NCBI GenBank assembly: GCA_963695895.1
Contig: CAVOIK010000033.1
Location: 28,426-92,425 of the forward strand
Source of the DNA: an uncultured delta proteobacterium
Lineage (GTDB): Bacteria; Desulfobacterota; BSN033; UBA1163
Length of the DNA: 64,000 nucleotides
Direction: 5' to 3'
Shown here: in pieces, positions 3,240 to 63,417 of the stretch
Layout of the letters: the number at the start of each line of letters is the position of its first letter
How positions within the stretch are numbered: the first letter of the stretch is position 1
Notes under the pieces: generated by a model
Seen by the model: the letters and a program-made list of their open reading frames with translations, nothing else
The model's database searches: none
What the model was told of the DNA's origin: nothing
Translations under genes and position numbers: made by a program

Positions 3240-3347
3240 TGACCGGAGCGTGCCCTGCAAGCCCCGCCCTGTGGGCGGGGTAAAGGGGCACAATATAAAT
3301 GATAAATCATTGCCGGGAAGCCCCGCGCTGTGCGCAGAGAGCTTCAC
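3240..3347 (+). repeat. two-hairpin intergenic repeat, subtype B (stem GTGCCCC/GGGGCAC), copy B3
   Basis: Sequence is TGACCGGAGCGTGCCCt...GGGGCACAATATAAATGATAAATCATTGCCGGGAAGCC...GAGCTTCAC. It abuts the HAD gene stop codon (3348..3350). Confidence 0.9.
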
Positions 3348-4110: not shown

Positions 4111-5323
4111 CTAAGGAAGTTTCTTCCGCTCCCTCTCTAAAGAGATAAATGTTGTTTGGGGAACGAGCTTCCCTTCTTTCACCACAAAGACACGAGACTC
4201 CACACTTGGGCGGTGGTCTTGCGAAGTGATCGTGACGGGTGGAACGAGTCCTCCAAGAACAACATCATGAAACTTCTCCAAAGAACTCCGAATCCCGTCC
4301 CGAGACAGTCGTTCTTCGGGAAGGGATCTCCCCAAGGCCTCCGCGATGATTTGAGCCGTCACCCAACCTTCCACAAAGGAGACCGTATGGACGTCGTGGG
4401 GATGCCATCTCTGATGAGCTTCTTTGATGGCGATCATTCCAGGCACGTCTGCTCCAAAAGGCGAGAAAGGCTGAATGCCGAGGACACCTTCGAAAGGTCC
4501 GAGCATTTCATCGAAGCCTTTCCCATGGATCATCCATCTCGTTTTCCATCCGATGTCCTTTGCCTCTTGGAGGACTGAAAAAGCTTCTTTGGGAGTCAAA
4601 CTGAGGTAGACGAAGTCTGGATTGTATTGTACTACAGGGGCAAGGACCTTCGCCCCGGGTTTTTCCGTCTTGTCTGCGGAAGGGGTTTCTTTCGACGGAG
4701 AAAACTCGGAAAACAGAACGTCCGGTCCGACGTCAAGACCGAGACGATAGGCTTCCGATTTTGCCTCTTCCAGGAAGTGGCGATCAAGGTAGTCTGAGGA
4801 CCCGACGAAGAGGATTTTGGGTTTCTTTGCCTTAATGCCAGAATTTTCGGCGATGAACTTAAGCCCGATCTTCGATAGATCCAGGGGAGTGGGGGAGGCG
4901 GAAAAGAAATAAGGGTACTTAGAAGGGTAGGTCAACGGGGATGGCAAGAAACTCACGAACGTGGGCGATCCGATTGAAATGAATATGAGACTGAAGGTTG
5001 ATTGCGGTTTCGGCAGAGTAGGTATAGAGAACCAGGATGCGGTCGATCTCATTCAGTTTTCGGTAGGCCGCCACTGTTTCAGCGACTTGAGATGTGTCTT
5101 CAATGACGAGGATCTCGAGTCTTCGTCCAAAAATGCCCCCTTGTTGATTGATCCATCTTGCTCCATCCTGCAACCCTCGTGCACATTCCCGACCGAGGTC
5201 TCCCCAGCGGCCAGCAAAAGGAACCAGAGCACCTACTTTCATCGCGGTTTGGCAGGCGCCAGAACCTGGAATCCACAGAATGAGAAATGCAAGAATCAGA
5301 AGGAGGAATCCCCTTTTTTTCAT
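4111..5323 (-). CDS. branched-chain-amino-acid-type ABC substrate-binding protein (LivK/Peripla_BP_6-like), frame broken once
   Basis: The N-part MKKRGFLLLILAFLILWIPGSGACQTAMKVGALVPFAGRWG...YSAETAINLQS is in the frame of ORF 4919..5485. It continues as LIFISIGSPTFVSFLPSPLTYPSKYPYFFSASP... in the frame of ORF 4111..5052. The switch is near 4985..4995. ATG at 5323 has AGAGAGGA upstream. Confidence 0.75.
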
Positions 5324-10135: not shown

Positions 10136-10248
10136 TGACCGGCAAGTGCCCCGCAAGCCCCGTCCTTGAGGGGGCGGCCAAGGGGCACGAATATAATTGG
10201 GAAAGTACCTTACCGGGAAGCCACGCTCTTTAGGGCGTGGAGCTTCCC
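10136..10248 (+). repeat. two-hairpin intergenic repeat, subtype B, copy B4
   Basis: Sequence is TGACCGGCAAGTGCCCCgcaagCCCCGtCCttgaGGgGGCGG..GGGGCACgAATATAATTGGGAAAGTACCTTACCGGGAAGCCACGCtcTTTAGGGCGTGGAGCTTCCC. Confidence 0.9.
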
Positions 10249-10744: not shown

Positions 10745-11174
10745 CAATGATCAGGGCCTGTCTATCTGACAACGTTCTTTAAACAGGTTATTAACAAGAA
10801 GGTGTCGTCACAGACTGATAGAACCACAATATCTTGTGCTGGGACAAAGAAGAATAACAAACCTGCAACTATTTGAAATTACATATATTTCTTGTATGGA
10901 TGTCTTCCTTTAGCAGTGATTTTCCAATCGATTTGGGGAAGTACAGGCCGTTACCACACTTTTTTCCACAGGATTTTCACATCTGAGTACACCTCCTCTC
11001 TAGCCCTTGATGCGAGGACATTTAGCGGATGCCGCCGCTGCTTTCCAGTGATGGTAGAAGGATTGCTGAGATCTCTGTGCTGAGGGCATTGCAGAATCAA
11101 CGTCAGCGCAATCCTGACTTCGCATCATCAGGTTTGGAGGCCATTGGAGCAATTCCTTCTTTTCTAGACGGTAC

Positions 11175-11488
11175 GCATTCAAGGTTGGCGGCCCGACCCG
11201 TGTGGCCTTCTCCGAACCCCTGTACGGCGGGTCTCCAGACGAATGGGTTGCCGGGGTTGTGGAGCTGCGAGATCGTTTCCGAGGCAATCCGTTCTCGCAG
11301 TTGGACAAGGAGAGGTGCCGCCCTGCCTACCGGTAGGCAGGCACAGGGTTTCTCCGAAGACCACACTGGTCCGTCCGCCTGTCACGGGCAAGTCGGCTGG
11401 ATGCCCCGCGGGGAAGAAGGCCGACCCTATAATCATATCTACATTTCGCGGAAGCCCCTGCCGTGTGGGCGGAAAGCTTCATTTTCCC
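11175..11488 (+). repeat. long variant of the subtype-A repeat: about 200-nt structured 5' domain plus A core (copy A5L)
   Basis: Aligns along its whole length with 55142..55476. The 5' domain is closed by GTGTGG...CCACAC and CCCTGT...ACAGGG. The A core starts at 11382 (TCACGGGCAAGTCGGCT) and ends ...GGAAAGCTTCATTTTCCCA. Confidence 0.85.
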
Positions 11489-16376: not shown

Positions 16377-16505
16377 ACCGGCAGGTGCCCCGTTAGCCCC
16401 ACCCTTTAGGGTGGGGTCCCTGCCTGCCGGCAGGCAGGAAGGGGCACCCTATCAAAGAGAAGTACCTTTCCGGGAAGCCCCGCCCTTCAGGGCGGGGAGC
16501 TTCCC
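16376..16505 (+). repeat. two-hairpin intergenic repeat, subtype B, copy B6 (inside the iorA-iorB operon spacer)
   Basis: Starts at the G of the iorA TAG stop: GACCGGCAGGTGCCCC...CCTGCCTGCCGGCAGGCAGG..GGGGCACCCTATCAAAGAGAAGTACCTTTCCGGGAAGCCCCGCCCttcaGGGCGGGGAGCTTCCC. Confidence 0.9.
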
Positions 16506-17213: not shown

Positions 17214-17357
17214 GGGAAGCTCTCCGCCCATCCCGTTAAGACGGGACAGGCACGGCTGGGGCTTCCGGGTAAGGAAAATATTATCACAGGGTCGGCTTTC
17301 CTCCCCGCCTCCTGCCTACCGGCAGGAAGGCGGGGCATCGAGCCGACTTGCCCGTGA
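17214..17357 (-). repeat. two-hairpin intergenic repeat, subtype A, inverted copy A7
   Basis: Plus strand reads GgGAAGCTCtCCGCCCatCCCGTTAAGACGGGacaggcacGGCTGGGGCTTCCGGG...AGGGTCGGCT...CCTGCCTACCGGCAGG...AGCCGACTTGCCCGTGA. Confidence 0.9.
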
Positions 17358-23453: not shown

Positions 23454-23592
23454 GTTCGACAGGCAAGTGTTCGACAGGCAAGTCGGCTGGGTGCCCCGCT
23501 CCGCCTTAGTTAAGACAGGCGGGGCGGAAAGCCGACCGTGTAATGATATCTTCATTACCCGGAAGCTCCGCCCTGTAGGCGGGGAGCTTCAT
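23454..23592 (+). repeat. two-hairpin intergenic repeat, subtype A, copy A8, with tandemly duplicated left terminus
   Basis: GTTCGACAGGCAAGT occurs twice in tandem (23454..23468 and 23469..23483). This is followed by CGGCTGG...AGCCGACCGTGTAATGATATCTTCATTACCCGGAAGCTCCGCCCtgtaGGCGGGGAGCTTCAT. Confidence 0.85.
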
Positions 23593-26822: not shown

Positions 26823-26991
26823 CACGGGCAAGTCGGCTGGATGCCCCGCCTTCCTGCCGGTAGGCAGGGGCGGGGAGGGCGGTAACGGACTCCCGCAGTG
26901 GAGTCAAAGCCGACCCTGTAATTATATCTACATTTCCCGGAAGCCCCAGCCGTGTCTGTCCCGTCTTAACGGGATGGGCGGGGAGCTTCAC
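26823..26991 (+). repeat. two-hairpin intergenic repeat, subtype A, copy A9 (extended hairpin 1 with extra arm)
   Basis: CACGGGCAAGTCGGCTGG...CCTGCCggtaGGCAGG...GGACTCCcgcagtGGAGTCaaAGCCGACCCTGTAATTATATCTACATTTCCCGGAAGCC...CCCGTCTTAACGGG...GAGCTTCAC. Confidence 0.9.
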
Positions 26992-30284: not shown

Positions 30285-32237
30285 ATGAAGAAGCCGATTA
30301 TCATCCTTCTCCTTCTCCTTTTCTCAATGGTCTATTTTATGGGTCTTCTCACTCAAAAGCCCCCGTTACCCTTCTCAAAGGACTTCTTCTCCGTAGAGAC
30401 TCCACCTTCTGATGACCGGCCCCTTGATCTGAAGACCGTTTGGCCAGTGCGTGGAAAGAATGGTGAGGGGAATGAATTTCTACTCAGCACTCAGGAACTT
30501 GATAAGATTTATGAACTACAGTTGGACCGAGGAATCAGGAATTACCCACTCCTTTCCTCCGTGCTCGTCCGTGAAGCAGAGCGAGCGAGGGAAAAAGGAA
30601 AGATTGACCGGGCTGTCGAGTTTGCGAGTTACGCTGTAAAGTTTGCTCCCGAGCTTTCTCAACCCTATTTCGAGCTTGCAAAAGTCCGGTGGAGTCAGAA
30701 CCCTCTCAAGCCTTACGAAGCGATCTCCAGTTTCTTGAAGGGGATCTCTGCCTATTTTCGCTACTATCCGAGCGCTCTCCATTTCTTTTACGGTCTCTTC
30801 TACCTTGTTTCCAACGCCATGCTTATGACTTTCATCGTCTTTGGAATTGTAGTTCTCATCAAATATCTCCCGCTTTATTTTTACGACATTCAGAAAAGCT
30901 TGACTCAGGAGATTGGGAAACTGCTCATCAACAGTTTCAAAATCCTATTTCTTTTCATCCCATTCTTCCTCCGTCTGGACATGTTATGGGCCTTGCTGTT
31001 TTGGTCTATTTTGCTCTGGGGGTACATTTCAAGCAAGGAAAGGCAGTGGGTTATCTTTTTTCTCGTGGTGTTGATTTATCTACCGTTTTTTCTCCGTTCC
31101 TCGGCGACCTTCTTGAACGGGTCTTCTTCGGATATCATCCTTGAAATGCACCGAGCAAACCACGAGGATTGGGATCGGGACCTGGAGCAGAGGCTCCAGG
31201 CATGGCTGGTCACTCAGCCCGAAGATCCGGATACCCTTTTTACCCTGGGTCTCATTGAGAAGAGAAGGGGCAACTCTGCCCAAGCGGAAAAATGGTATCA
31301 GCGTGCCATTGCCCAGAGTCCTCAATTTAGCGAAGCTTACTCTAATCTTGGGAATGTCTACCTCGCGGGGAAAGAAACGAAAGCAGCGCTCACCTCCTAT
31401 CAGAAGGCTGTCGATTTGGATCCGATGAAAGCGGCCTACCACTACAATCTTTCCCGAGCCTATACGGAAGAAGCCTTCTTATCGGGGAAAAAGGACCAGG
31501 CTTTTCAGAGGGCAAGGCAGTTAGATCCGCAACTCATCGATTATTACGTGGCCATCGACACCTTCCACGGAACTCCCCACATCAACCGTTTCGTCATCGA
31601 TGAGGCCCTGAGTTCTGAGAGACTCTGGGAAAGATTTCTGACCCATTTCGTCGGAAAGGAAGGGTGGATGTTTCGGTTGTTTCATGCATGGTTCGAAAAG
31701 ATTCCTTCCAGGCTCTCATTTCTTGCCCCCGTCCTTTTCCTTCTGTTTCTCATCGGAATGTCTCGCTACAGCCGGGCCAAACGGTTCTTAACGCGATGTC
31801 CCATGTGTGGAAGCCCGACACACCGGTTCTATCTGGGGGCGTCAGATCATGAATTCATTTGTTTCAACTGTTACCGGATCTTCGTGCAGAAAGAGAAGCT
31901 CCACCCCAAAATTGTAGAGAAGAAGTCGCTCCAGGTGCGTGAATTTCAAAAGCAGAACCATCGCATCAGTCGTTTCGTCTCTTTCTTCTTTGTGGGTTTT
32001 GCTTACCTCTGGAGAGAATCCTTCTTTCGAGGTCTGTTGTTTCTCTTTGTGTTTTTTGTTTTTGTCTTGAGATTCATCTACTGGAACGGTATCCTCCCTC
32101 TGCGGAGCACACCCACCTCTCAAGGCATCTGGAGTCTTCTCCTCTGGGGAGGGGGCTTTATCATTTTCTATTTGCTGGTGCTCCGGCAGACGTTTCGAAT
32201 GAAGTTGCAACTGGGAAGAGAGTCTGCAGGGGAGTGA
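30285..32237 (+). CDS. polytopic membrane protein with TPR repeats and a zinc-ribbon-like CxxC...CxxC segment
   Basis: 650 aa with several TM stretches, TPR block (AEKWYQRAIAQSPQFSEAYSNLGNVYLAGKE...) and CPMCGSPTHRF...CFNCYRIF. Confidence 0.6.
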   Translation: MKKPIIILLLLLFSMVYFMGLLTQKPPLPFSKDFFSVETPPSDDRPLDLKTVWPVRGKNGEGNEFLLSTQELDKIYELQLDRGIRNYPLLSSVLVREAERAREKGKIDRAVEFASYAVKFAPELSQPYFELAKVRWSQNPLKPYEAISSFLKGISAYFRYYPSALHFFYGLFYLVSNAMLMTFIVFGIVVLIKYLPLYFYDIQKSLTQEIGKLLINSFKILFLFIPFFLRLDMLWALLFWSILLWGYISSKERQWVIFFLVVLIYLPFFLRSSATFLNGSSSDIILEMHRANHEDWDRDLEQRLQAWLVTQPEDPDTLFTLGLIEKRRGNSAQAEKWYQRAIAQSPQFSEAYSNLGNVYLAGKETKAALTSYQKAVDLDPMKAAYHYNLSRAYTEEAFLSGKKDQAFQRARQLDPQLIDYYVAIDTFHGTPHINRFVIDEALSSERLWERFLTHFVGKEGWMFRLFHAWFEKIPSRLSFLAPVLFLLFLIGMSRYSRAKRFLTRCPMCGSPTHRFYLGASDHEFICFNCYRIFVQKEKLHPKIVEKKSLQVREFQKQNHRISRFVSFFFVGFAYLWRESFFRGLLFLFVFFVFVLRFIYWNGILPLRSTPTSQGIWSLLLWGGGFIIFYLLVLRQTFRMKLQLGRESAGE

Positions 32238-32303
32238 AGCTCCCCGCCCATCCCGTTAAGACGGGACAGGCACGGCTGGGGCATCCAGCCGACTTGCCCG
32301 TGA
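32234..32303 (-). repeat. internally deleted subtype-A repeat, inverted copy A10
   Basis: GTGAAGCTCCCCGCCCatCCCGTTAAGACGGGacaggcacGGCTGGGGC is joined directly to ATCCAGCCGACTTGCCCGTGA. The linker and inner half of hairpin 1 are missing. The TGA stop of the upstream gene (32235..32237) lies in the repeat terminus. Confidence 0.85.
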
Positions 32304-33520: not shown

Positions 33521-33668
33521 TGACCGGAGCGTGCCCCGCAAGCCCCGCACTGTGGGCGGGGGTCCCTGCCTGCCGGCAGGCAGGAAGGGGCACAATATCA
33601 AAGAACAAGTCATTGCCGGGAAGCTCCGCGCTGTGCCTGCCTGCGGTAGGCAGGCGCGGGAGGTTCAC
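33521..33668 (+). repeat. two-hairpin intergenic repeat, subtype B, copy B11 (CCTGCC/GGCAGG module in both hairpins)
   Basis: TGACCGGAGCGTGCCCC...CCTGCCTGCCGGCAGGCAGG..GGGGCACAATATCAAAGAACAAGTCATTGCCGGGAAGCTCCGCGctgtgCCTGCCTGCGGTAGGCAGGCGCGGGAGGTTCAC. Confidence 0.9.
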
Positions 33669-38300: not shown

Positions 38301-38812
38301 GCCGAAAGAACGGAGGGGAGGTCAAGATCTGTGGTCTTGTGAGCGAGCTCAAGGAGATCGTCACCAAGAAAGGGGATCGGATGGCTTTTCTCACCCTCGA
38401 GGACATGAAAGGGTTTGTCGAAGTCATCCTCTTTCCGGAAGTCTTCCGGGCAGCGCTGCCCGTCCTGAGTGGGGGAGACCCGATCCTTGTGCGAGGGACG
38501 CTTGATCCATCGGAAGATCACGTCAAGATCAAGGCCACCGAGGTCCAAACCCTCCCGGAAATGTCCCTGCCTTCCGAAAAAAACCTTCGCTTGAAGATCT
38601 CTCTCACCTCCTTGATGCCGTCTCAGCTTGAAGGGTTAAAAGAGATCCTGACCGACCATCGGGGGCACACCAGAGTATTGCTGCATCTCATCAACGGGAA
38701 ACAACAGGAAACGATCATTGCCCTGTCGGACCAATATGCTGTGGATCCATCTCCGCTGTTTCAAGACCGGGTGAAGAACCTTTTCCAACCCTCCGTCATT
38801 TCGATCGAATGA
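35339..38812 (+). CDS. dnaE: DNA polymerase III alpha subunit
   Basis: PHP domain FIHLHVHSQYSLLDG, polymerase core, and OB fold. 1157 aa in one uninterrupted frame. Confidence 0.97.
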   Translation: MTDSRLTMMQHADFIHLHVHSQYSLLDGAIRFDEMLELARQYQMGAVALTDHGNMFGVVEFYQKAIQHGVKPIVGCEVYVAPGSRLDKKSGIGEGAYHLTLLAMNRTGYFNLLRLVSLAFLEGFYYKPRVDKDLLSHYHEGLIALSGCLKGEVAVHASKGEMKRALQSAEEYERIFDHQRYFVEIQNNGVENQALLNERLLEIAHERSLPLVATNDCHYLHREDSPAHEVLLCIQTGKTLQEADRMKFSSEEFYFKSPQEMRELFQDHSDALAHTLEIADRCNLDLRFDEKHIPRISVPQGESLNSTLDKLAREGLGQRLLSLREKKDFGGREPKYRARLEEELTVIKSMGFAGYFLIVADFIHFAKSRGIPVGPGRGSAAGSLVAYSLNITDLDPIEYDLIFERFLNPGRKSSMPDVDVDFCMEGRDDVIHYVMDKYGKENVAQIITFGKMQARAVIRDVGRVMGIPYAEVDRVAKLIPATLNITLEQALEQEPRLRELMGKDPRIASLFKIAKSLEGLARHASTHAAGVVIANKPLMEYLPLCRGQDGEVMTQYPMKDVEKIGLVKFDFLGLKTLTVVNNALQLIEKHRGVKIDLSQLPLDDSETFALLGGAETLGIFQLESSGMRDLLSKLRPESFREIIALVALYRPGPLGSGMVEEFIKRKHGKESIRYEVKELEDILSDTYGVIVYQEQVMRIASTLSNFSLEDADILRRAMSKKDPREMEMQKEKFLEGARKNRIPRSKAEKIFDLMAKFAEYGFNKSHSAAYALLAYETAYLKAHYPIEFMAASLTSEVQNPDKIVKYIAECRDMGIEILPPDLNESQKSFAVVGNQIRFGLAAVKNVGDAAIDAILAEREGQGKFGSLSDFCRRVDLRKVNRRVIESLVKCGAFDFSKAYRSQILSRLDELLERSQSDQKKKGEPQLSMWSTADARQEDSYPDIEEFPEKQLIALEKETMGFYISRHPLARLQEDIKRITHEDTSTLARRKNGGEVKICGLVSELKEIVTKKGDRMAFLTLEDMKGFVEVILFPEVFRAALPVLSGGDPILVRGTLDPSEDHVKIKATEVQTLPEMSLPSEKNLRLKISLTSLMPSQLEGLKEILTDHRGHTRVLLHLINGKQQETIIALSDQYAVDPSPLFQDRVKNLFQPSVISIE

Positions 38813-38951
38813 AGCTCCCTGCCCATCCCGTTAAGACGGGACAGGCACGGCAGGGGCTTCCGGGAGATGTAAACACGATTACAGGGTCGGCTTTCCTCCC
38901 CGCCCCTGCCTACTGGCAGGAAGGCGGGGCATCCAGCCGACTTACCCGTGA
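38810..38951 (-). repeat. two-hairpin intergenic repeat, subtype A, inverted copy A12
   Basis: The dnaE stop TGA (38810..38812) is the first three bases of TGAAGCTCCCTGCCCatCCCGTTAAGACGGG...GCTTCCGGGAGATGTAAACACGATTACAGGGTCGGCT...CCTGCCTACTGGCAGG...AGCCGACTTACCCGTGA. accA starts 10 nt later. Confidence 0.9.
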
Positions 38952-40089: not shown

Positions 40090-40200
40090 TTACCGGCAAG
40101 TGCCCCGTAAGCCTTGCCCTTGAGGGCGGGGCCAAGGGGCACACTATAAAAGGAAAGTGCCTTCCCGGGAAGCGACGCCCTTTAGGGCGTGGAGCTTCAA
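40090..40200 (+). repeat. two-hairpin intergenic repeat, subtype B, copy B13
   Basis: TTACCGGCAAGTGCCCCgtaagCCttGCCCttgaGGGCGGGGccaaGGGGCACACTATAAAAGGAAAGTGCCTTCCCGGGAAGCGACGCCCtttaGGGCGTGGAGCTTCAA. Confidence 0.9.
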
Positions 40201-42268: not shown

Positions 42269-43660
42269 TCATTCTATCCCGTCGTGGTCCAGGCCATATT
42301 TCTCAAGGCGGTACCGCATGGAACGAAAGTTGATGCGAAGCAATTCGGCCGCTTTCTTTTTGATTCCCTTCGTTCGATCCAAGGCTTTCAAGAGCAGGGC
42401 TCTTTCAATCTCTTCAATCACCTTCTCAAGGTCAATTCCATCCGGAGGAATGTCGAGATCGATGGCACTTCGTTTGCCCTGAATCTGTTCGTCCAGGTAG
42501 GAACTGAGATGCTGGGGGGTCAACTCATTTCCGTTTCCCAAGGCTACCGCCCGTTCAATGATGTTCTGAAGCTCCCGAACATTGCCAGGATACTCGTAGT
42601 TGAGCAACATAGTGAGGGCTTCGGGCGAGACCTTCAAGATGTTCTTGTTCAGTTCTTCTGAATACTTTTTCAGAAAATGGGCAGCCAGAATGGGAATGTC
42701 TTCCTTTCTGTCACGGAGAGGGGGCATTTTAACCTGAATCACGTTGAGGCGGTAGAACAAATCCTCCCGGAATTGTTTTTCCTTCACCGTCTCCTCTAAA
42801 TCCTTGTTCGTCGCAGAGATAATCCTCACGTCCACTCGAATATCTTCTGTTCCTCCCACCCGCTTGAATTCTTTGTCCTGGAGGACCCGGAGCAACTTGA
42901 CCTGCATCAGCAGTGGAAGTTCGCTGATTTCATCCAGGAAAATCGTTCCTTCATCAGCCATTTCGAACAATCCCTTCTTGGTGGTAATGGCGTCCGTGAA
43001 GGCTCCTTTCATGTGACCGAAGAGCTCACTCTCGATGAGCGATTCAGGAATGGCACCGCAGTTCAAGGTAACAAAAGGCTTATCTTTTCTTGAACTGTTG
43101 TAATGGACCGCCTTGGCTGCGAGTTCTTTTCCCGTCCCGCTTTCCCCAGTAATGAGGATATTCGTCTTGGTGGGAGCTATTTTTTCCAGAAGATCATAAA
43201 GGGCCAACATCTTGGAACTCTGGCCGATGATACTTCCAAAGCGATAGCGATCGCGGACCACCTGCTTCAGCAAGAGGTTTTCTTTTTGAAGATTTTTCTT
43301 TTCCAAGGCGTTTTTGATGATCAGCTTGATCTCATCGACCTTGAACGGCTTGGTAATGTAATCGTAAGCCCCCTCTTTCATGGCTTTAATCGCCGTGTCC
43401 GCGGACGCGTAGGCCGTGATCATGATGACAATGGTCTCAGGAGATGCAGTTTTGATCTTTTTCAAGACGCCAATGCCGTCCAGTCTGGGCATCCGAATAT
43501 CCAGAAGGATCAGGTCAAAGAGGTCCTTGTCAATAAGCTTCAAGACCTCCTCTCCGTTGGAGGCCAGGGAGACCTTGTACCCCTCCTTTTTGAGCATGAT
43601 ATCCAAAAATTCTCGCATGCTCTGCTCATCATCGGCAACTAAGATTCTATCTTCTAACAT
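42269..43660 (-). CDS. pilR: sigma-54-dependent response regulator (REC-AAA+-HTH), PilR-like by context
   Basis: ILVADDEQSMREFL...LLDIRMPRLDG, GESGTGKELAAKAVH, GAFTDA (GAFTGA variant), and a Fis-type HTH. Adjacent to the pilS-like kinase and pilCTB. Confidence 0.8.
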   Translation of the reverse strand: MLEDRILVADDEQSMREFLDIMLKKEGYKVSLASNGEEVLKLIDKDLFDLILLDIRMPRLDGIGVLKKIKTASPETIVIMITAYASADTAIKAMKEGAYDYITKPFKVDEIKLIIKNALEKKNLQKENLLLKQVVRDRYRFGSIIGQSSKMLALYDLLEKIAPTKTNILITGESGTGKELAAKAVHYNSSRKDKPFVTLNCGAIPESLIESELFGHMKGAFTDAITTKKGLFEMADEGTIFLDEISELPLLMQVKLLRVLQDKEFKRVGGTEDIRVDVRIISATNKDLEETVKEKQFREDLFYRLNVIQVKMPPLRDRKEDIPILAAHFLKKYSEELNKNILKVSPEALTMLLNYEYPGNVRELQNIIERAVALGNGNELTPQHLSSYLDEQIQGKRSAIDLDIPPDGIDLEKVIEEIERALLLKALDRTKGIKKKAAELLRINFRSMRYRLEKYGLDHDGIE

Positions 43661-45397
43661 GCTTTCGTCTCCTCATCTCTATCGGTAGGCAGAAAGATGG
43701 CAAAGGTTGACCCTCGATCCACCTCACTCTCCACCGTGATCACGCCCTTATGGTTTTCAATGATCTTGTGGACAATCGACAATCCGAGCCCTGTTCCTCC
43801 ATCCTTGGTGGTATAGAAAGGATCGAAGATCTTCTCTTTCTCTTGGGGGGGAATTCCGACGCCAGAATCCGAAATTGAGATCTTCACCCAGGACTCTTCC
43901 CTCTGGGAGGAAGGCCAAGGGGGATTGGATGATTGGAGGCCGTTTTCTCTTTTTTCAAGGAGGATTCGTAGATCTCCGCCGCTGGACATGGCCTGAGCGG
44001 CATTAATCAAGAGGTTCCAGAACACTTGTTTCATCTGATCTGGGTCGATCATGACCTCGAGCGATGGGTGGCCTTGAGGACGGTGAATTCGAATCTTTGA
44101 ATGGTACTTTGGAGAGTTCTGTAAGAGATCGATCGTTTCTTCAAGAAGGGGTTCGATTTTTGAGAGGGTTTTGTTCGTTTTAGGAGGTTGAGCAAAAAGG
44201 AGGAAGTCTGTAATGAGAGAATTCAATCTTTCCGATTCTCTCAGAATAATGTCCATCAGTCTTGTATTACTGGGATCCAGAACGAGTTCGGATCTCAGCA
44301 CTTGAATGGCCCCAGACAGACGAGGTCAGTGGATTTCGGATCTCATGAGCCATCCCCGCAGCCAACTGTCCGATGGCAGCCATCTTGTCAAATCGGATCA
44401 TCTGTTCTTCCATCTCTTTGAATTTCGTGATGTCCTGAAAAATCAGGGTATGTCCCATGAGTGATCCGTGGGGGCCGGGGAGGGGAGAGATGGAGAACCC
44501 GAGATAAACCCGTTTCCCCTCTGGATGGATAAAGAGGGTCTCGTAGCGTTGATAGTCCAAGGAGGTTTCTGTTCCCTTCCGTTTGATGCGATCGATCACC
44601 TCCTGGATCTTTGGGAAGAGGTCGTAGGCGGAGACATTTCTCAATCCCTCTCCATTCACATTGAGTATTTTTTCAGCGGTTCGATTCAGAAAATTGATCT
44701 TCCCTTCCGGATCGATGGTCAAGAGTCCGCTATCGAGGCTTTGGATAATATTCCGATTGAAGGTTTCAAGCTGGTCATAGTCGTCCTGCTTCTGGATCAG
44801 CTCGCTCCTTTTCCGTTTCAGTTCCTCGGAGATTACACTGCTGAGGAAGGCCACAATATAAAAAGCAGCCATGTAAAGAACGAGAGAATAGAAGAATTGG
44901 CCAGGTTCAAAAACGTCGGAGGTCTGTCCGATCGGATGGATCACCCGATAGTACTGAAGGAGGAGGAGAAGTCCATAGAGCAAGGTCGCAAGCGAGGCAG
45001 AGAAAAAAGCTCCGCGTTTGAAGAAGATGACGCTACTCCCAATGATGGAGAAGATATACGTCATCGGGAAGAAGCTGTCTTTCCCGCCGGTGAAGAAAAC
45101 GAGTCCAATAATGAAGAAATGATCGAGCACCATTTGAACAAAAGTGAATCGACGGAGATCCTGGACGGACCGGAGCAGGACATCGTATAGGATGGTGACC
45201 AGGTAGAAAAACCCGATGAAGTAGTAGAAACTGTTCGTTAACGGGATGAAGAACGACCGCTTCTCTGAGATCTGAAAGACAAAGGAGATCGTCAAGAGCA
45301 GGGTGAGGATGACGACACGACACAGCATCACCCCTTTGACGCTTTTCATAGCCCTTTGTTGCAAGTCTACGGGAAGGGCGGCTGCCGGTTCGATCAA
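43654..45397 (-). CDS. pilS: PilS-like sensor histidine kinase (multi-TM N-domain, PAS, HisKA, HATPase), frame broken once
   Basis: ORF 44267..45397 ends ...AAGMAHEIRNPLTS. ORF 43654..44301 continues (SGAIQV)LRSELVLDPSNTRLMDIILRESERL...GTGLGLSIVHKIIENHKG. The frame switch is near 44315..44325. Confidence 0.75.
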
Positions 45398-45417: not shown

Positions 45418-45606
45418 ATAGGCAAGTCGGCTGAAGGTTCCACCCTGCCTAGGCGCGTCTGTCTGTCCATAGACAGCGGAGGCAGGGAAGGCGAAAATGG
45501 ACTCCAGCACCGGAGTCAAAGCCGACCGTGTGTCACATTCCATCAGCATTATCTGGAAGTCTCGCCCCTGTGACTGCCTAGCGCTGCACAGGGTGAGAAG
45601 CTTCAC
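45418..45606 (+). repeat. divergent subtype-A repeat, copy A14
   Basis: cATAGGCAAGTCGGCT...CCTGCCTAGG..GGCAGG...GGACTCCagcaccGGAGTCaaAGCCGACCGTGTGTCACATTCCATCAGCATTATCTGGAAGT...GAAGCTTCAC. The helices are retained through compensatory and wobble changes. Confidence 0.75.
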
Positions 45607-45624: not shown

Positions 45625-46832
45625 TTAACCAACCGCAGAGGCCATACTGAAGATGGGCAGATACATGGCAATGACGACCCCTCCGATGACCACTCCCAGG
45701 AAGATCATCAGGAGAGGCTCTAGCATGGATGTCAAGTTGGACACGGCCACATCTACCTCATCTTCAAAAAACTCGGCAATTTTGGTCAGCATCGAGTCTA
45801 GGGCTCCCGTCGACTCCCCGACGGAAATCATCTGAATGACCATGGGCGGGAAGATGTTGCTTCGGCCAAGCGGTTCTGCGATCGTTTCACCCTCACGAAT
45901 GCTGGCCCGGGCATTGAGGATGGCCGTTTCAATCACCTTATTCCCTGCCGTCTTGGAAACAATGTTCAGTCCATCCAAAATGGGAACACCGCTACTCACT
46001 AAGGTTCCTAGGGTGCGGGAAAAACGGGCGACTGCGATCTTCCTGAAGAGGTCTCCAAAGACCGGGGCCTTCAAAAGCAGTCGGTCCATGACGGTTTTTC
46101 CGTTTTCAGTGTGATGATATTTCCGAAGCAGGAAAATGGCCAAAATGATGGCAGGGACGACAATAAAGATATATTTCCTCACGAATTTGCTGATCTCCAC
46201 CACGATCAGGGTCGGAAGGGGAAGGTTTTGCCCCGCCGATGAAAACATCGTCTCGAAGACTGGGATCACAAAAATCATCAGGATCGATGACCACGCCGAT
46301 CGCCACGGTCACGATGACCGAAGGATAGACAAGCGCAGACTTGACCTTCTTCTTGAGGGCTTCCGCCTTTTCAATGTATGCCGCCAAGCGGTTGAGGATA
46401 TTGTCCAGAATGCCTCCCTCTTCGCCGGCCACGACCAGGTTGGTGTAGAGGTCGTTGAAGACGTTGGGGTGTTTCTTAAGGGCTCCCGCAAAGGTCGAAC
46501 CTCCCTCCACGTCTTCACGGATCTCCCGCAGGATCCCCTTGAAAATCTTGTTATCCTGTTGGGAGGCCAGGATTTCAAGAGATTGAACCAGAGGGCAGCC
46601 CCGCATCGATCATGGTGGCGAGTTGTCGTGTAAAGATAGCGATGGCGCGCTGCGGAACTCGCTTGCCAAAGGGGAAAGAAATGGTGATTTCCTTTCCCTT
46701 GGCCGAGATCTTCGTGGGGATGATGTTCTGTTGTCTGAGATGGATGCGGATGGCTCCTTCGGTGGCTGCCTCCATCTCTCCTTTCTTGACGACTCCCTTC
46801 AGTGTTTTTCCTTCCCATTTATAGATCGGCAT
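45625..46832 (-). CDS. pilC: type IV pilus platform protein PilC (GspF family), frame broken twice
   Basis: Three consecutive ORFs (46575..46832, 46106..46606, 45625..46278) join to a complete PilC: ...FTRQLATMIDAGLP|LVQSLEILASQQDN...VTVAIGVVI|LMIFVIPVFETMF...GESTGALDSML. Breaks are near 46592 and 46283..46287. Confidence 0.8.
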
Positions 46833-54161: not shown

Positions 54162-55145
54162 TCAGGAAGGGGTTTTGTTCTTAAAGACGTTTTCTTGGGC
54201 CCACTCGATGTCCTTTTGGATCCGGGTGATGAGCTGTGCAATAGAATCGAATCGGGCTTCGTCTCGGATCCTTCTAACAAAGTCAATCTGAATTTCCTCT
54301 CCGTAGATGTCCTCATCGAAATCAAGGATATAGACTTCTGACGAGATCTTTCCTTCTCCTTCCGTTTGAAATGTAGGATTCCAGCCGACGTTGGCGACAC
54401 CCTTGAAGGATTGCCTCTTCCACAGGACCTCAACGGCGTAGACTCCGGGCAGAGGAGTTAACTCCTCGGAGATTTCAAGATTGGCTGTTGGAAATCCGAG
54501 GAGGTGTCCCCTTTTTGCTCCCTCGATGACCTTTCCAAGAATAGAATAATGTCGTCCCAGGAGTTTGGAGGCTTTCTCAACTTGGCCGTTCTTGATCAGT
54601 TCTCGAATCTTGGAACTGCTGACCGTCGTTCCTTCGATGATCAGGGAGTCTATGATTTCAACCTGAAGGTTGAACAGGCTTCCAATCTGTTTCAAAATTT
54701 GAGGATTCCCTTTATTATTTTTTCCAAAATGGTAGTTGAATCCCACAATCACCTTTTGAGCCCCCACTTTTTCAATGAGGATGTTCTTAACAAAATCGGA
54801 AGGAGACATCTCTGAGAAAGTCTTTGTGAATTCGATGCAGAGGAGGACATCCATTCCTGATTGCTCGATGAGCAAGATCTTCCTTCTGAAAGGAGTCAAA
54901 AAAGGAGGACAGGATTTGGGTGATAGGACCTTCAACGGGTGAGGCTCAAAAGTAATGACCACGGATTCCCCGCCCATCCTTGAGGCTTCTGTCTTTACCC
55001 TCTCGAAGATTTTCTGATGCCCGAGATGGAGACCATCGAAGTTACCCAGGGTAACGACTGGGTTCACCAGTCGCCTCGACAAGCGATCAATGCCGAAAAT
55101 CGTTTCCACGTCAACAGTCCTCGAAGGTGCACCGCTTGTAAGCAT
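54162..55145 (-). CDS. ribF: bifunctional riboflavin kinase / FMN adenylyltransferase
   Basis: VVTLGNFDGLHLGHQKIF, and the C-terminal kinase domain GFPTANL...GVYAV...NVGWNPTF. Confidence 0.9.
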   Translation of the reverse strand: MLTSGAPSRTVDVETIFGIDRLSRRLVNPVVTLGNFDGLHLGHQKIFERVKTEASRMGGESVVITFEPHPLKVLSPKSCPPFLTPFRRKILLIEQSGMDVLLCIEFTKTFSEMSPSDFVKNILIEKVGAQKVIVGFNYHFGKNNKGNPQILKQIGSLFNLQVEIIDSLIIEGTTVSSSKIRELIKNGQVEKASKLLGRHYSILGKVIEGAKRGHLLGFPTANLEISEELTPLPGVYAVEVLWKRQSFKGVANVGWNPTFQTEGEGKISSEVYILDFDEDIYGEEIQIDFVRRIRDEARFDSIAQLITRIQKDIEWAQENVFKNKTPS

Positions 55146-55476
55146 TCACGGGTGGCGACTCGGCCAGTGTGGCCTTCTCCGCACCCCTGCACGGTGGGTC
55201 TTTAGACGAATGGGTAATCGGGCTTGCGGGGGTACAAGATCGCTTCCAAGGGGTTTCGTTTCTGCAGTGAGACAGGTAAAGGTGTCGCCCTGCCTACCGG
55301 CAGGCAGGCACAGGGTTTCTCCGAAGACCGCACTGGCCCGTTCACCTGTGACGGGCAAGTCGGCTGGATGCCCCGGCTTCCTGCCCGTAGCAGGGGCGGG
55401 GAGGAATGCCGACCTTGTAATCATATCTACATTTCCCGGAAGCCACGGCCTGCGGGTGGAAAGCTTCATTTTCCCA
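55142..55476 (+). repeat. long variant of the subtype-A repeat (copy A15L)
   Basis: Collinear with 11175..11488: shared GCATTCA, GGtGGCG..C.CG.CC.GTGTGGCCTTCTCCG.ACCCCTG.ACGG.GGGTCT..AGACGAATGGGT ... CGCCCTGCCTACCGG.AGGCAGGCACAGGGTTTCTCCGAAGACC.CACTGG, then the A core from 55348. The ribF start codon (55145..55143) lies in the shared left edge. Confidence 0.85.
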
Positions 55477-55515
55477 TCCTTGTCTGAATGCTTACTATTA
55501 CTTCTCACGAAGTGC

Positions 55516-55543
55516 TTGACTTTACAACAAAAAAATATAAAAT
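55516..55543 (+). promoter_or_regulatory. possible sigma-70 promoter for tRNA-Leu
   Basis: TTGACT (55516..55521), 16-nt spacer, TAAAAT (55538..55543), about 37 nt upstream of the tRNA. Confidence 0.35.
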
Positions 55544-55579
55544 AAAGTATTCTCGTTTTCAATTGATCTGTTCCAAGAT

Positions 55580-55668
55580 GCCGAAGTGGCGGAATTGGCA
55601 GACGCGCTAGATTCAGGGTCTAGTGGGATGTAAGTCCTGTGGGGGTTCAAGTCCCCCCTTCGGCACCA
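55580..55668 (+). tRNA. tRNA-Leu (anticodon CAG), encoded CCA
   Basis: Hand-folded cloverleaf. Acceptor GCCGAAG/CTTCGGC. Anticodon stem CTAGA/TCTAG with loop TTCAGGG. Long variable arm. T-arm GGGGG-TTCAAGT-CCCCC. Discriminator A plus CCA. Confidence 0.9.
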
Positions 55669-55749
55669 TTGTTTTTCTGTAAAAAGGTTAATCTCCCTGC
55701 ATGGAATTCGGTTTTTAGAAAACAACTGCTTCTCCTGCTCTCACGTCTG

Positions 55750-55858
55750 TCACGGGCAAGTCGGCTGGAGGCCCTGCTTGTAGGCGGGGAGAAAAGCCGA
55801 CCCTGTAATGACAGATACATTTCCCGGAAGCCCTGCTCTGTGGGGGGGGAGAGCTTCC
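55750..55858 (+). repeat. two-hairpin intergenic repeat, subtype A, copy A16
   Basis: TCACGGGCAAGTCGGCTGGaggCCCTGCttgtaGGCGGGGagaaAAGCCGACCCTGTAATGACAGATACATTTCCCGGAAGCCCTGCtctgtGGGGGGGGAGAGCTTCCC. Confidence 0.9.
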
Positions 55859-55869
55859 CTTGTTTCGGT

Positions 55870-56991
55870 ATGGAAGGTATGGAACACGGGGTACGAAAAA
55901 TACTGATCGTTGACGACAATCCGGAGTTCGCCCGGATGACGGGACGATTCCTGGAACATCAGGGCTTTCGTATTGCGATTGCGGACAGTGGGTATAAAGC
56001 AGTTGAAAAGATTCAGTCCGAGCCTCAGGATTTGGTCCTCCTCGACTTGAAATTGCCTGACGTTATGGGCATGGAGGTCCTGAAACGCATTAAGGAGATC
56101 AATGACGATATCGCTTTCATCATCATCACAGGTTACGGCGGGGAACAGGTGGCGATCGATTTCATGAAGGCGGGGGCCCTCGATTTTCTGTCGAAACCCA
56201 TTGACAATGACATCCTTTTGAAAACCATCAAGAATGCCCTCAAGATCCGTGATGCCCAAGTTGAAGACAAACAGTTGAAGGGATATTCGACCTTAGAGAG
56301 GTTCTTTCCTTTTCTCGCCCACGAAATCAGAAATCCTCTCCATGCGATTGGTGGAGCATTGGCCATCATCCAGAGGCGAACCGATCTAAAGGATGAGCTC
56401 TTGGCCCAGTCCATGAAGATCATTCAGGAGGAAATTCAACACCTGAACGAGTTTGTCCAGGAGTGTTTGGATTTTGTCCGGCCCCCGGTCAGGAGTCACT
56501 ATGTGGAAGTGGACCTCAATGAATTGGTTTCTATCGTGATCAGCATCGTGTCTTATATGTTTCAGGAGTCGTCGCAGAAGGTCAAGGTGACAACTCACCT
56601 GGCCCCCAAGCTTCCAAAGGTTCAAGCCAACTATGAGGAAGTTAAGCAAGCCCTGCTGAATATTGTCAAGAATGGATTTGAAGCCATGGAGGAAGGGGGA
56701 GAATTTACTGTCACGACAACTTTCAAACCCAATCCCAATCCCGATCCCAACCCCGGATGGGTGGAGATTACCTTCGTGGACAGTGGCCCCGGGATTAGAG
56801 AAGAGAACAAGAAGTACCTCTTTAGCCCCTTCTTCACAACGAAACTGAGGGGAACCGGCCTTGGTCTCCCGATCTGTCATAGAATTATTGTGGAGCGGCA
56901 TAAAGGAAGAATGCATTTTGAAAGCGAAGAGACCAAGGGAACCACGATGAAGGTTGAACTACCTATCGGCCATCCCATGGAGATGCCCTGA
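55870..56991 (+). CDS. hybrid receiver-histidine kinase (REC-HisKA-HATPase)
   Basis: KILIVDDNPEFARM...LLDLKLPDVMG...SKPI, then FLAHEIRNPLHAIGG, and GTGLGLPICHRIIVERHKG. The ATG at 55870 was chosen because the track ORF (55639) starts inside the tRNA/repeat region. Confidence 0.8.
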   Translation: MEGMEHGVRKILIVDDNPEFARMTGRFLEHQGFRIAIADSGYKAVEKIQSEPQDLVLLDLKLPDVMGMEVLKRIKEINDDIAFIIITGYGGEQVAIDFMKAGALDFLSKPIDNDILLKTIKNALKIRDAQVEDKQLKGYSTLERFFPFLAHEIRNPLHAIGGALAIIQRRTDLKDELLAQSMKIIQEEIQHLNEFVQECLDFVRPPVRSHYVEVDLNELVSIVISIVSYMFQESSQKVKVTTHLAPKLPKVQANYEEVKQALLNIVKNGFEAMEEGGEFTVTTTFKPNPNPDPNPGWVEITFVDSGPGIREENKKYLFSPFFTTKLRGTGLGLPICHRIIVERHKGRMHFESEETKGTTMKVELPIGHPMEMP

Positions 56992-57119
56992 CCGGCAAGT
57001 GCCCCGTAAGCCCCGCCCTTGAGGGCAGGGTCCCTGCCTGCCGGCAGGCAGGAAGGGGCACAATATAAAAGGAAAGTACCCTACCGGGAAGCGACGCCCT
57101 TTAGGGCGTGGAGCTTCAC
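56989..57119 (+). repeat. two-hairpin intergenic repeat, subtype B, copy B17
   Basis: The kinase stop TGA (56989..56991) is the first three bases of TGACCGGCAAGTGCCCCgtaagCCCCGCCCttgaGGGCaGGGtCCCTGCCTGCCGGCAGGCAGGaaGGGGCACAATATAAAAGGAAAGTACCCTACCGGGAAGCGACGCCCtttaGGGCGTGGAGCTTCAC. The next gene starts 10 nt later. Confidence 0.95.
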
Positions 57120-57129
57120 ATAAAGAACT

Positions 57130-58521
57130 ATGGTGACGCCGTCTATCTTAGTCGTTGATGATGAACCCAATTCCCTTTTTGGGCTCTGTCAGATCTTGAC
57201 CGATGAAGGGTACAAGACCCTTCCAGCCAAGAACGGAATGGAGGCGCTAGAAAAGCTGAAGACAGAGACGGCCGACGTCATCATTACCGATGAAAAGATG
57301 CCGGATCTCAGCGGCATGGAGCTTTTGGCGGAAGTCAAAAAGCTTGAACGACCCATTCCCGTGATTCTCATCACGGCGTACGGGTCTGTATCGATGGCTG
57401 TCGAAGCGCTGAAGCAAGGGGCCTATTATTTCTTTGAAAAGCCTGTCTTCGACAAGATCGAGCGATTCCTGGCAATCATCCACCAGATTCTCAGGGCCCA
57501 GGAGATGGAGAGAGAACTTCACCATCTCAGGAAGGAAGTCAGTGATAAATACTCTTTCCCCAACATCATCGGAAATCACCCAACGATGGCCGAAGTTTTT
57601 GGGATCGTTGGAAGGGTGGCTCAGACAGACAAAACAGTGCTGATCCAAGGCGAGAGCGGAACAGGCAAGGATCTCATCGCAAAAACCATCCATTACAATA
57701 GCTTGAGGAAGGACAAGCCTCTGGTTACAGTCAATTGCGGGGCTCTCACGGAGTCCCTGCTGACCACGGAGCTCTTCGGCCATACCAAAGGGGCTTTCAC
57801 TGGGGCAGTGAAGGACAGTGTCGGCCGGTTCCAGATGGCCGATGGAGGAACGTTGGTTCTGGACGAAATCGCAGAGGTTCCTCTTCATCTTCAGAAAACC
57901 CTTTTGCGGATCATCGAAGAAAAGGAATTCGAACGAGTCGGTGACAGCCGGTCCATCAAGTTGGATGTGAGAATTATCTCCTCGACAAATCGCAATCTCC
58001 AGCAAGAGGTTCAACAGGGGAACTTTAGGGAAGATCTTTATTACAGGATCAGCATCGTTCCCATTGTGCTTCCCTCTCTCAGAGAGCGAGTGTCAGATAT
58101 CCCACTGCTCGTAAATTACTTTCTCAGAAAATTTCAGGAGGGAGACAAACCGATCAAGATTGACCCTGAGGCGGTCGAGCATCTCAAGAGCCATTCGTGG
58201 CCTGGAAACGTCAGAGAGCTGTCGAATATTATCCAACAGATGATGGTGTTTAGAAAAGGGGGAGAGTCCATCACGGTTCATGATCTTCCTCCACATTTTT
58301 TTTCGATGGAAACGAATCTCGGACAGGAAAAGCAAGGGAGAATTCAGTTGGCAGGATTGGTTGCGGATCTTGAGAGGAAGTGGATTACTCAGAAATTGAA
58401 GGAATGTGGTTGGAACAGAGAAAGAGCGGCTTCACTCTTGGGGATAACGCGAAAGATGCTCACGGATCGGATGAGGAAATACCGGATTCAACTCCCGGGA
58501 AAGAAGACGTTTCATTCTTGA
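57130..58521 (+). CDS. sigma-54-dependent response regulator (NtrC/AtoC family)
   Basis: ILVVDDEPNSLF...ITDEKMPDLSG, GESGTGKDLIAKTIH, GAFTGA, Fis-type HTH. 463 aa. Confidence 0.9.
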   Translation: MVTPSILVVDDEPNSLFGLCQILTDEGYKTLPAKNGMEALEKLKTETADVIITDEKMPDLSGMELLAEVKKLERPIPVILITAYGSVSMAVEALKQGAYYFFEKPVFDKIERFLAIIHQILRAQEMERELHHLRKEVSDKYSFPNIIGNHPTMAEVFGIVGRVAQTDKTVLIQGESGTGKDLIAKTIHYNSLRKDKPLVTVNCGALTESLLTTELFGHTKGAFTGAVKDSVGRFQMADGGTLVLDEIAEVPLHLQKTLLRIIEEKEFERVGDSRSIKLDVRIISSTNRNLQQEVQQGNFREDLYYRISIVPIVLPSLRERVSDIPLLVNYFLRKFQEGDKPIKIDPEAVEHLKSHSWPGNVRELSNIIQQMMVFRKGGESITVHDLPPHFFSMETNLGQEKQGRIQLAGLVADLERKWITQKLKECGWNRERAASLLGITRKMLTDRMRKYRIQLPGKKTFHS

Positions 58522-63306: not shown

Positions 63307-63417
63307 CCGGCAGTGTGTCCTGCCCCGCCAGGAAGGGGCACAACAAGAAAAGATAATTCATTTCCGGGAAGCCCCGCCCTGTGCCTGCCTGCGGTAGGCA
63401 GGGGCGAGGAGCTTCAC
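63304..63417 (+). repeat. two-hairpin intergenic repeat, subtype B (degenerate hairpin 1), copy B18
   Basis: The stop TGA (63304..63306) is the first three bases of TGACCGGCAGTGTGTCC...GGGGCACAACAAGAAAAGATAATTCATTTCCGGGAAGCCCCGCCCtgtgCCTGCCTGCGGTAGGCAGGGGCGAGGAGCTTCAC. Confidence 0.85.

Follow-up and report, generated by a model that had tools for sequence, protein, structure and literature searches.

The sequence considered here is a 64,000-nucleotide stretch of contig CAVOIK010000033.1 from an uncultured delta proteobacterium (the window), and our subject is a folded repeat, copy B6, at positions 56989–57120. We consider it very likely that B6 is a mobile, structure-dependent selfish repeat, and the account that we favour, with less assurance, is that it belongs to a family of small (about 100–190 nt), non-autonomous mobile elements that move as a folded single strand, probably single-stranded DNA (ssDNA) cut by an HUH-type enzyme. 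The ssDNA/HUH step specifically is put forward more tentatively, by analogy with known systems.

A covariance model built from the repeat copies of the window matches B6 at 56989–57120 with 109 bits (E 4.6e-24); the stretch singled out by the initial annotation, which had proposed that two subtypes of the repeat differ by compensatory changes in three helices, is therefore real and far above chance. The element proper, on the forward strand as are all of its parts, is 127 nt long (56992–57118, CCGGCAAG to GAGCTTCA) and follows directly on the triplet TGA (56989–56991), its target-site triplet, which is also the stop codon of the upstream open reading frame (ORF list and Pfam; 55639–56991), a histidine kinase/receiver gene. 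Downstream, the ATG of an NtrC-type regulator gene lies at 57130, 11 nt past the end of B6. The closing helix, P0, pairs CCGG at 56992–56995 with CCGG at 57084–57087, and stem 1 pairs GTGCCCC at 56999–57005 with GGGGCAC at 57055–57061. Within stem 1 lie an inner hairpin, CCCCGCCC-TTGA-GGGCAGGG (57011–57030, from direct reading and folding, with a C.A mismatch at 57014/57027 on the written strand), and a 20-nt perfect palindrome, CCTGCCTGCCGGCAGGCAGG (57033–57052), an optional part that is present in the related copies B3 and B4 as well as in B6 and absent from B1, B2 and B5. A mostly unpaired A+T-rich linker (57062–57083) then leads to the 3′ half of P0, which directly adjoins hairpin 2 (GAAGC-GACGCCC-TTTA-GGGCGTG-GA-GCTTC, 57088–57117) and the terminal A at 57118. 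The predicted minimum-energy fold of B6 consists of P0, stem 1 enclosing two G+C-rich hairpins, the linker and hairpin 2, so that every helix named in the initial annotation is present, whether the strand is folded as RNA or as DNA. The energy is −66.9 kcal/mol for the written strand as RNA, and the z score is −4.6 as RNA and −3.25 as DNA.

With the same model we found 17 full copies in the window (E 1e-13 to 1e-25) and one deletion derivative (E 5.5e-4), and nothing else with E<0.05. These 18 copies, 66–187 nt in size and spaced at one per 3.6 kb, fall into 11 of subfamily A (10 full copies and the deletion derivative, A7) and seven of subfamily B. The architecture is fixed: P0 pairs the initial four bases with the four immediately 5′ of hairpin 2, stem 1 (7 bp) carries exchangeable G+C-rich hairpin modules, and the A+T-rich linker comes next, followed by the 3′ hairpin 2. 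Type A begins with CGGGCAAGTCGGCT and type B with CCGGCAAGTGCCCC, and the linker sequence is unlike between the two. Both share a 5′ motif C-S-GG-CAAGT, AA(A/G)G preceding stem 1's 3′ half, C(C/G)GGAAGC and the end GAGCTTCA. The possibility had been raised that the A and B stems are unrelated sequences that do not align; MAFFT aligns the two subfamilies position by position from end to end, and since they can be aligned over their whole length they are positionally homologous.

Comparison of the subfamilies shows how the helices have been kept. In stem 1, four of the seven pairs are exchanged between A and B (C:G to G:C, G:C to C:G twice, and T:A to C:G), as had been claimed, but the two forms are not found in all copies, as had also been claimed: GTCGGCT/AGCCGAC is exact in eight of the 10 full A copies (the exceptions being a T:G wobble in A3 and a T:T mismatch in A10, at the last pair), and GTGCCCC/GGGGCAC in five of the seven B copies (B1 has a T:G wobble and B7 a rearranged 5′ half). 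The reported co-variation of P0 was borne out, A having CGGG/CCCG and B having CCGG/CCGG; the exchange (G:C to C:G) affects one pair of the four, and all four are standard in 15–16 of the 17 copies, the exceptions being A3 (G.G) and A5 (A.C). The base of hairpin 2, GAAGC/GCTTC, is invariant except for GGTTC in B4, and its inner stem has a C:G pair in most copies that becomes A:T in B2, B5 and B6, again in agreement with the first reading.

Across 131 distinct sequences, which include copies from metagenomes (see below), the 16 core pairs are 98.6% paired, compared with 29–52% when the 3′ partners are slid by one to three columns, and none of 500 column shuffles reached the observed values. Most of the covariation signal is a single A/B split, so that independent events in stem 1 and P0 are few. 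Those in stem 1 are GTCCCCC/GGGGGAC (L119) and GTTCCCT/GGGGAAC (L149), both in metagenome copies (L numbers denote loci outside the window), and those in P0 are TCGG/CCGA (L131) and TAGG/TCTG, the latter in the divergent window copy A9, where it had been noted before. The inner stems of the metagenome copies add many further changes. In the B lineage, a MAFFT alignment of 27 copies that was unfitted to any structure gave 91.5% pairing over 31 pairs, 11 of which have changed on both sides, mostly in the inner hairpins; again, 0 of 500 shuffles scored as high. Minimum-energy folds of single sequences contain stem 1 in 111, hairpin 2 in 112 and P0 in 96 of 118 cases, and P0 appears in 113 of the 118 when they are folded as circles. 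The conclusion that the pairing itself is maintained is sound. The proposal that the fold is under selection thus stands in so far as compensatory changes have preserved the pairing; what is selected is most likely the element's ability to propagate itself rather than a use to the host, because close relatives differ in the copies that they carry and the copies favour no orientation to genes, as described below.

The initial annotation had further argued that one specific strand folds, on the ground that every non-Watson–Crick position is G:T on the written strand. This rule does not hold, as shown by the A.C pair in P0 of A5 and the C.A mismatch of B6. A G:T excess is nevertheless present: the ratio of G:T to A:C is 25:7 on the written strand over the 16 core pairs of all copies, and 36:21 in the B lineage (31 pairs, p 0.06). 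The written strand folds better in 93 copies and the complement in 63, with a mean advantage for the written strand of 1.0 kcal/mol. On the other side, RNAalifold predicts the same helices on both strands (−16.7 kcal/mol for the written strand and −20.7 for the complement), and B6 itself folds better on the complement. We conclude that there is a modest family-wide preference for the written strand and no clean rule, and that the one-strand argument is weakly supported.

The evidence that the family is mobile comes from seven pairs of filled and empty sites: B1 against L135; L129/L128; L222/L160; L234/L212; L192/L185; the A copies inside a second repeat, D4, against L140 and L148; and the dnaE–accA spacer of the window against L238/L240. 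Together they give the insertion target as T(C/G)A|CT, with one T(C/G)A-CT held in the empty site. For example, L128 (empty) reads CTCTATCACTATCTG and L129 (filled) CTCTATCG[CGGG...GCTTCA]CTATTTG; L135 (empty) reads ACAATGACTCGGGG and the window (filled) ACGGTGA[CCGG...GCTTCA]CTCAGGG; and L238 (empty) reads GGAGTGAGCGAGC and the dnaE–accA spacer of the window (filled) CGAA[TGAAGC...ACCCG]TGAGCC. A logo of the flanks shows the same pattern, the left flank being TCA in A copies (T in 104, C in 110 and A in 97 of 122) and TGA in B copies (T in 17, G in 17 and A in 14 of 19), while on the 3′ side of all copies GCTTC is followed by A in 122, C in 122 and T in 110 of 143. Terminal inverted repeats are absent, the 5′ end, CGGGCAAGTCGG, being unlike TGAAGCTCCCCG (the 3′ end in reverse complement), and apart from 1–4 ambiguous bases the target is not duplicated. 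That junction ambiguity of 1–4 nt is seen in the A copies; in B copies the left TGA differs from the right TCA, and a true duplication is therefore lacking. By a slight margin, the most parsimonious position of the cut across the pairs is between T(C/G) and A, in which case the element would be R-C(G/C)GG...GCTTC.

Homologues of AccA put the organism among MAGs of uncultured Deltaproteobacteria/Thermodesulfobacteriota. The syntenic relatives L238 and L240 (83% AccA identity) have no clear copy over the same 14 kb that holds four in the window; they contain only subsignificant model matches (16–18 bits, E 0.01–0.04), and these lie at other places. In L239, a third relative, there are two clear copies, both elsewhere than at these sites, and the accA–mutL spacer contains a decayed 5′ fragment of a B copy. 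Many core genes of L239, an ENA contig, are called in two pieces (guaA, dnaE and mutL among them), which suggests assembly indel errors and makes gene-integrity comparisons with it unreliable.

Because the element ends in ...TTCA, its insertion beside the complement of a TGA stop codon regenerates the stop, as has occurred at dnaE (38810–38812) and at a TPR gene (32235–32237); in 28 of 134 copies an antisense ORF of 80 codons or more uses the terminal TCA as its stop. With respect to the ORFs on either side, 35 copies are sense and 33 antisense, with 25 between divergent and 23 between convergent ORFs. Neighbouring copies share an orientation in a ratio of 36:18, and 14 of the 18 window copies are on the G-rich strand. 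The copies are most likely mobile DNA, and not a conserved host RNA motif.

A gapped-pattern scan of Joint Genome Institute (JGI) metagenomes yielded 120 loci, 600 kb in total, of which about 110 contain true copies; these supply about 140 further copies, nearly all from freshwater sediment and wetland samples. Elsewhere the searches were negative. A scan of a genome collection with the 15-mer ACGGGCAAGTCGGCT returned 117 loci, all chance matches and none with the rest of the element; viral contigs gave five chance matches to the gapped pattern and no match to the model; and a distant blastn search of plasmids found no match to the element. Rfam identified only a tRNA-Leu at gathering score in the window, with nothing significant in 55000–57300 at E up to 10, and a full-text literature search for the conserved strings found only unrelated primer sequences. 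The family is apparently undescribed so far.

Since the 3′ half of P0 is directly followed by hairpin 2, P0 would be expected to stack on hairpin 2 in the folded strand. Such a stack would bring the two termini, 5′ and 3′, next to each other within a single nicked helix, interrupted by a single bulged A, and this fold could be the substrate that a structure-specific and strand-specific nuclease or transferase cuts and rejoins. The enzyme would most likely be of the HUH/Y1 type acting on single-stranded DNA, as in the ‘peel and paste’ transposition of IS200/IS605 or in the REP/RAYT systems (repetitive extragenic palindromes and their associated tyrosine transposases), and the helices would be conserved because copies unable to fold could not move.

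The closest mechanistic relatives, judged by analogy, appear to be non-autonomous elements derived from IS200/IS605 and the REP/RAYT systems. In IS200/IS605 ‘peel and paste’ a Y1 HUH transposase recognizes subterminal hairpins on one strand and cuts at short sequences set by intra-DNA base pairing (PMC3201880); in IS608, cleavage takes place 3′ of a short conserved sequence, without duplication and on the top strand only (PMC3201880). Like these elements, the present family has no terminal inverted repeats and no target duplication, inserts on the 3′ side of a brief conserved motif, bears a similar one (TCA) at its right end and seems to have subterminal imperfect hairpins at both ends; some of its features are apparently strand-specific, and neighbouring copies tend to share an orientation. 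It is because the geometry of end joining, the site-specific insertion without duplication or inverted ends and the sharing of orientation resemble IS200/IS605 that the fold is proposed as the transposition substrate. Each of the two hairpins has AAG immediately on its 5′ side, and each cut site has TTC or TCA, an arrangement suggestive of the pairing between guide and cleavage site in IS608. Unlike IS200/IS605, the two subfamilies use different left-flank triplets, TCA in A and TGA in B, and with this difference element position 2 is G in A and C in B, its P0 partner changing along with it; in both subfamilies the middle base of the left-flank triplet has its complement at position 2. This would fit a guide base for target recognition, although with two states only it is a lead and not a result. 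A bolder version, which we regard as a long shot, is that the element is a self-juxtaposing single-strand transposon substrate in which P0, rather than a protein dimer, joins the ends, the target triplet is encoded by the element, and the partner is perhaps an undescribed family of HUH or other nucleases in Thermodesulfobacteriota.

Several observations weigh against movement as ssDNA cut by an HUH-type enzyme. No candidate enzyme was found, in which the family differs from IS200/IS605. A phmmer search with the ISHp608 TnpA as query found no IS200-type TnpA, and nothing below E=2, among 3,740 ORF fragments in 664 kb of DNA, which falls short of the whole genome; the query was validated against PDB 2a6m (E 2.6e-103) and also detects archaeal and Deinococcus TnpA. 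No homologue of E. coli RayT was found in the same 664 kb, with a query that would probably miss a distant RAYT. There is no transposase among the window genes, and no full-length element, with the 5′ and 3′ halves parted by an ORF, in the 664 kb, where the sole interrupted copy (L140) contains the small repeat D4. The geometry of the ends also differs. Stem 1 starts 7 nt from the 5′ end of the element and the right-hand cut falls 0–1 nt from the foot of hairpin 2, compared with cleavage sites 19 nt 5′ and 10 nt 3′ of the hairpins in IS608 (PMC3201880). The two ends of the element, moreover, pair with each other, the 5′ end with the bases just 5′ of the 3′ hairpin, unlike those of IS608. As to the strand, B6 has a better minimum energy on the complement (−72.2 compared with −66.9 kcal/mol) because of its C.A mismatch, and the wobble asymmetry of the family is modest and could partly be accounted for by a C-to-T mutation bias. 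In IS200/IS605 elements orientation is biased relative to the replication fork, the top strand being on the lagging-strand template; here the link between orientation and GC skew is weak over all loci (89:59, p 0.06; per locus 53:37, p 0.2), and the orientation counts relative to genes rest on crude longest-ORF gene calls.

Other explanations have to be weighed against this one. If the fold served the cell as a host-selected structured RNA (a cis-regulatory leader, an intercistronic stabilizer or terminator, or a family of small RNA genes), its strong, compensated secondary structure and the slight excess of G:U over A:C on the written strand would be expected, and B3, B5, B6, A5 and B7 do lie a few bases upstream of start codons in the sense orientation; some multicopy intergenic sequences in Geobacter have been read as short RNA elements (PMC2700814). 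A host RNA is nevertheless improbable, because antisense copies are about as frequent as sense copies and the genes on either side of many copies are divergent or convergent, close relatives (L135, L238 and L240) have the orthologous sites empty, and the linker is not conserved between A and B. Nor is there an Rfam match even at E up to 10, or a sigma-70-like promoter or T-tract terminator in the three copies scanned (A10, A11 and B6), and the same helices are predicted on both strands. An RNA intermediate, circularized or reverse-transcribed, would turn the nicked helix into a site of RNA ligation or cleavage; P0 and hairpin 2 do bring the 5′ and 3′ ends together, P0 is predicted in nearly all copies folded as circles, and the strand asymmetry, modest as it is, would agree. 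We hold it to be very improbable, as no known ribozyme or retroelement RNA family in Rfam matches, a reverse transcriptase was not seen among the window genes, the promoter search gave none from which the entire element would be transcribed whatever its context, and exact insertion at T(C/G)A|C is typical of DNA enzymes.

Two DNA-based accounts remain to be compared with movement as a folded single strand. A classical MITE (a miniature transposable element with inverted repeats), moved by a DDE transposase on double-stranded DNA with the hairpins as incidental palindromes, would share the high copy number, the intergenic location, the presence/absence polymorphism and the nesting with other repeats. 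It is scarcely credible here, given ends that are not inverted repeats and B copies that have TGA on the left, TCA on the right and a single TGA in the empty site, whereas the co-resident D4 has 15-nt inverted ends and an 8-bp duplication. The element might instead be a domesticated repeat of the REP/BIME kind (BIME, bacterial interspersed mosaic element), which a single-copy RAYT would have spread and the host would retain for purposes such as mRNA stabilization, protein binding or nucleoid structure. A REP is a single palindrome of 20–40 nt with a conserved GTAG-type head, and BIMEs are inverted REP pairs. The present family likewise consists of abundant extragenic G+C-rich hairpins at very high density and in both orientations, has HUH-type features at its insertion sites, presumably shares HUH chemistry on folded ssDNA and is similarly ambiguous between selfish and domesticated; the REP/RAYT literature (PMC3333891, PMC8266576) also speaks for this reading. 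On the other side, the unit is a composite of 100–190 nt, three to five times longer and asymmetric, in which the two hairpins, in direct order, are not alike and are accompanied by a linker and a long-range helix; it lacks a GTAG-type head and is not built of inverted REP pairs, and the RayT search, insensitive to distant homologues as it probably was, found nothing in the 664 kb. We therefore regard a domesticated REP/BIME-like repeat as rather unlikely.

Other families of small repeats offer partial parallels. Like the streptococcal BOX, the ERIC and the Correia elements, the family is modular (conserved 5′ and 3′ modules, which pair together, enclose optional internal units), is intergenic and often within operons, and has a strong predicted RNA or DNA structure. 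It is unrelated to them in sequence and, unlike them, inserts site-specifically at T(C/G)A|C with no duplication; terminal inverted repeats are found in both Correia and ERIC elements, the Correia type duplicating TA as well. In Geobacter, from a related bacterial group, the genomes contain many families of short intergenic ‘multicopy nucleotide sequences’, some of them palindromic and some read as RNA elements (PMC2700814); these sequences (e.g. GRCGTAGCGCTGCTACGCC and GGACCGG heptads) are unrelated to ours, and their insertion sites were not analysed there (PMC2700814). We take the element to be a structured non-autonomous bacterial repeat, unusual for its end-joining helix and its subfamily-specific target triplet.

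A number of other identities were considered and dropped. Domain V of a group II intron, or another ribozyme, has no Rfam match and a different helix geometry. No sigma-70 promoter, for which the A+T-rich linker was considered, or intrinsic terminator, for which hairpin 2 was considered, was called inside A10, A11 or B6, and a sigma-54 promoter reading of GGGGCAC-N5 has no TTGC at −12. An integron attC site, in which R″/R′ core sites (RYYYAAC ... GTTRRRY) bound promoterless cassettes, was rejected in view of the ends CGGGCAAG ... GAGCTTCA, which contain no GTTRRRY, and of the housekeeping neighbours (dnaE, accA, mutL and guaA).

The remaining copies, all matched by the covariance model, are distributed over the window as follows. 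On the forward strand, subfamily A comprises A1 (439–556, 109.5 bits), A2 (2033–2147), A3 (11385–11481, inside a copy of D4), A5 (23475–23591, with its 5′ 15 nt tandemly duplicated just upstream), A6 (26825–26990, with an extra hairpin module), the divergent A9 (45419–45605), A10 (55352–55468, inside the second D4 copy) and A11 (55753–55858, just downstream of tRNA-Leu). On the reverse strand are A4 (17215–17354), A7 (32235–32300, the internal-deletion derivative, 24 bits, whose terminal TCA is the TGA stop of the TPR gene at 30285–32237) and A8 (38810–38948, between dnaE and accA, whose terminal TCA is the dnaE stop and whose site is empty in L238 and L240). The other B copies are all on the forward strand: B1 (3243–3346, with the orthologous site empty in L135), B2 (10139–10247), B3 (16378–16504, between two oxidoreductase subunit genes), B4 (33524–33667), B5 (40093–40199, between accA and mutL) and B7 (63307–63416, with its rearranged stem 1). 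The genes around them are core genes, including selB, oxidoreductase subunits, dnaE, accA, mutL, guaA, guaB, hflX, pilus genes and two-component regulators.

Some of these copies have features of their own. At the 5′ end of A5 the 15-nt string GTTCGACAGGCAAGT occurs as a tandem duplicate (23455–23489). A tRNA-Leu(CAG) gene (55580–55668) is flanked by A10 upstream, inside D4, and by A11 downstream, with a sigma-70-like promoter match at 55516–55543 between A10 and the tRNA. ‘Mini’ derivatives such as A7 also occur at L137:3284, L178:3493, L178:9150 and L195(−), independently of one another; all that they retain is the 5′ end, a single hairpin and the terminal GAGCTTCACT. Stem 1 and P0 are without their 3′ halves, and the derivatives apparently arose by deletion between similar GCCCCGCC / GGCGGGGAG arms. 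Copy A9 lies between a PilS-like sensor kinase and a PilC-like gene, at 43654–45397(−) and 45625–46818(−), of which the former is split in the window into two overlapping ORFs (376 and 215 aa, compared with one 556-aa gene in L240), and the latter, a T2SSF gene, seemingly into 217 and 169 aa (compared with 401 aa in L240). These splits are frameshifts, from pseudogenes or assembly errors.

The window also holds other repeats. The family D4, about 250–290 nt long, is represented at 11171–11384 plus 11482 to about 11510, and at 55138–55351 plus 55469 to about 55500, both copies being broken at the same TCA by an A copy; in L140(−), at about 4810–5100, D4 itself sits inside an A copy, with 15-nt inverted ends (GTAAGCATTCAGTCA / TGACTGAAGGGTTAC) and an 8-bp target duplication (AGCCGACC) that mark it as a classical MITE. 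Further D4 copies are found in L148, L194, L208, L179 and L119. A palindrome of 14–20 nt, CCTGCC(T)GCCGGYAGGCAGG, behaves as an exchangeable module. It occurs at 16420–16439, 33566–33585 and 57033–57052, with variants at 468–481, 2116–2132, 11323–11340, 17312–17325, 26854–26867, 33637–33653, 38906–38919, 55290–55307 and 63385–63401; its presence varies within stem 1 (in both subfamilies), the hairpin 2 loop and D4, and it also occurs in the accA–mutL spacer of the relative L240; it may be a separately spreading REP-like unit. Finally, about 290 nt at 2885–3180 are missing from the orthologous contig L135 (88–91% identical) and have an 81% match in L177; on this comparison the segment appears to be another inserted or repeated sequence, and an ORF without a Pfam match (2426–2995) runs into it.

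If movement as a folded single strand is the correct explanation, the covariation of these helices would report selection on the transposition intermediate of a mobile element and not on a host RNA, which would be a caution for genome scans that take compensated helices as evidence of functional RNAs. With their different target triplets and the end-joining helix, A and B give a testable way into the question of site choice by single-strand transposons, and if the guide-base reading is true, the choice of target would be reprogrammable by a single base pair. For the organism itself, the family is dense, at about one copy per 3.6 kb of core chromosome, and reaches the dnaE–accA spacer and the interiors of operons, with stop codons regenerated on insertion; such a density of repeats may explain the fragmented assemblies of this lineage.

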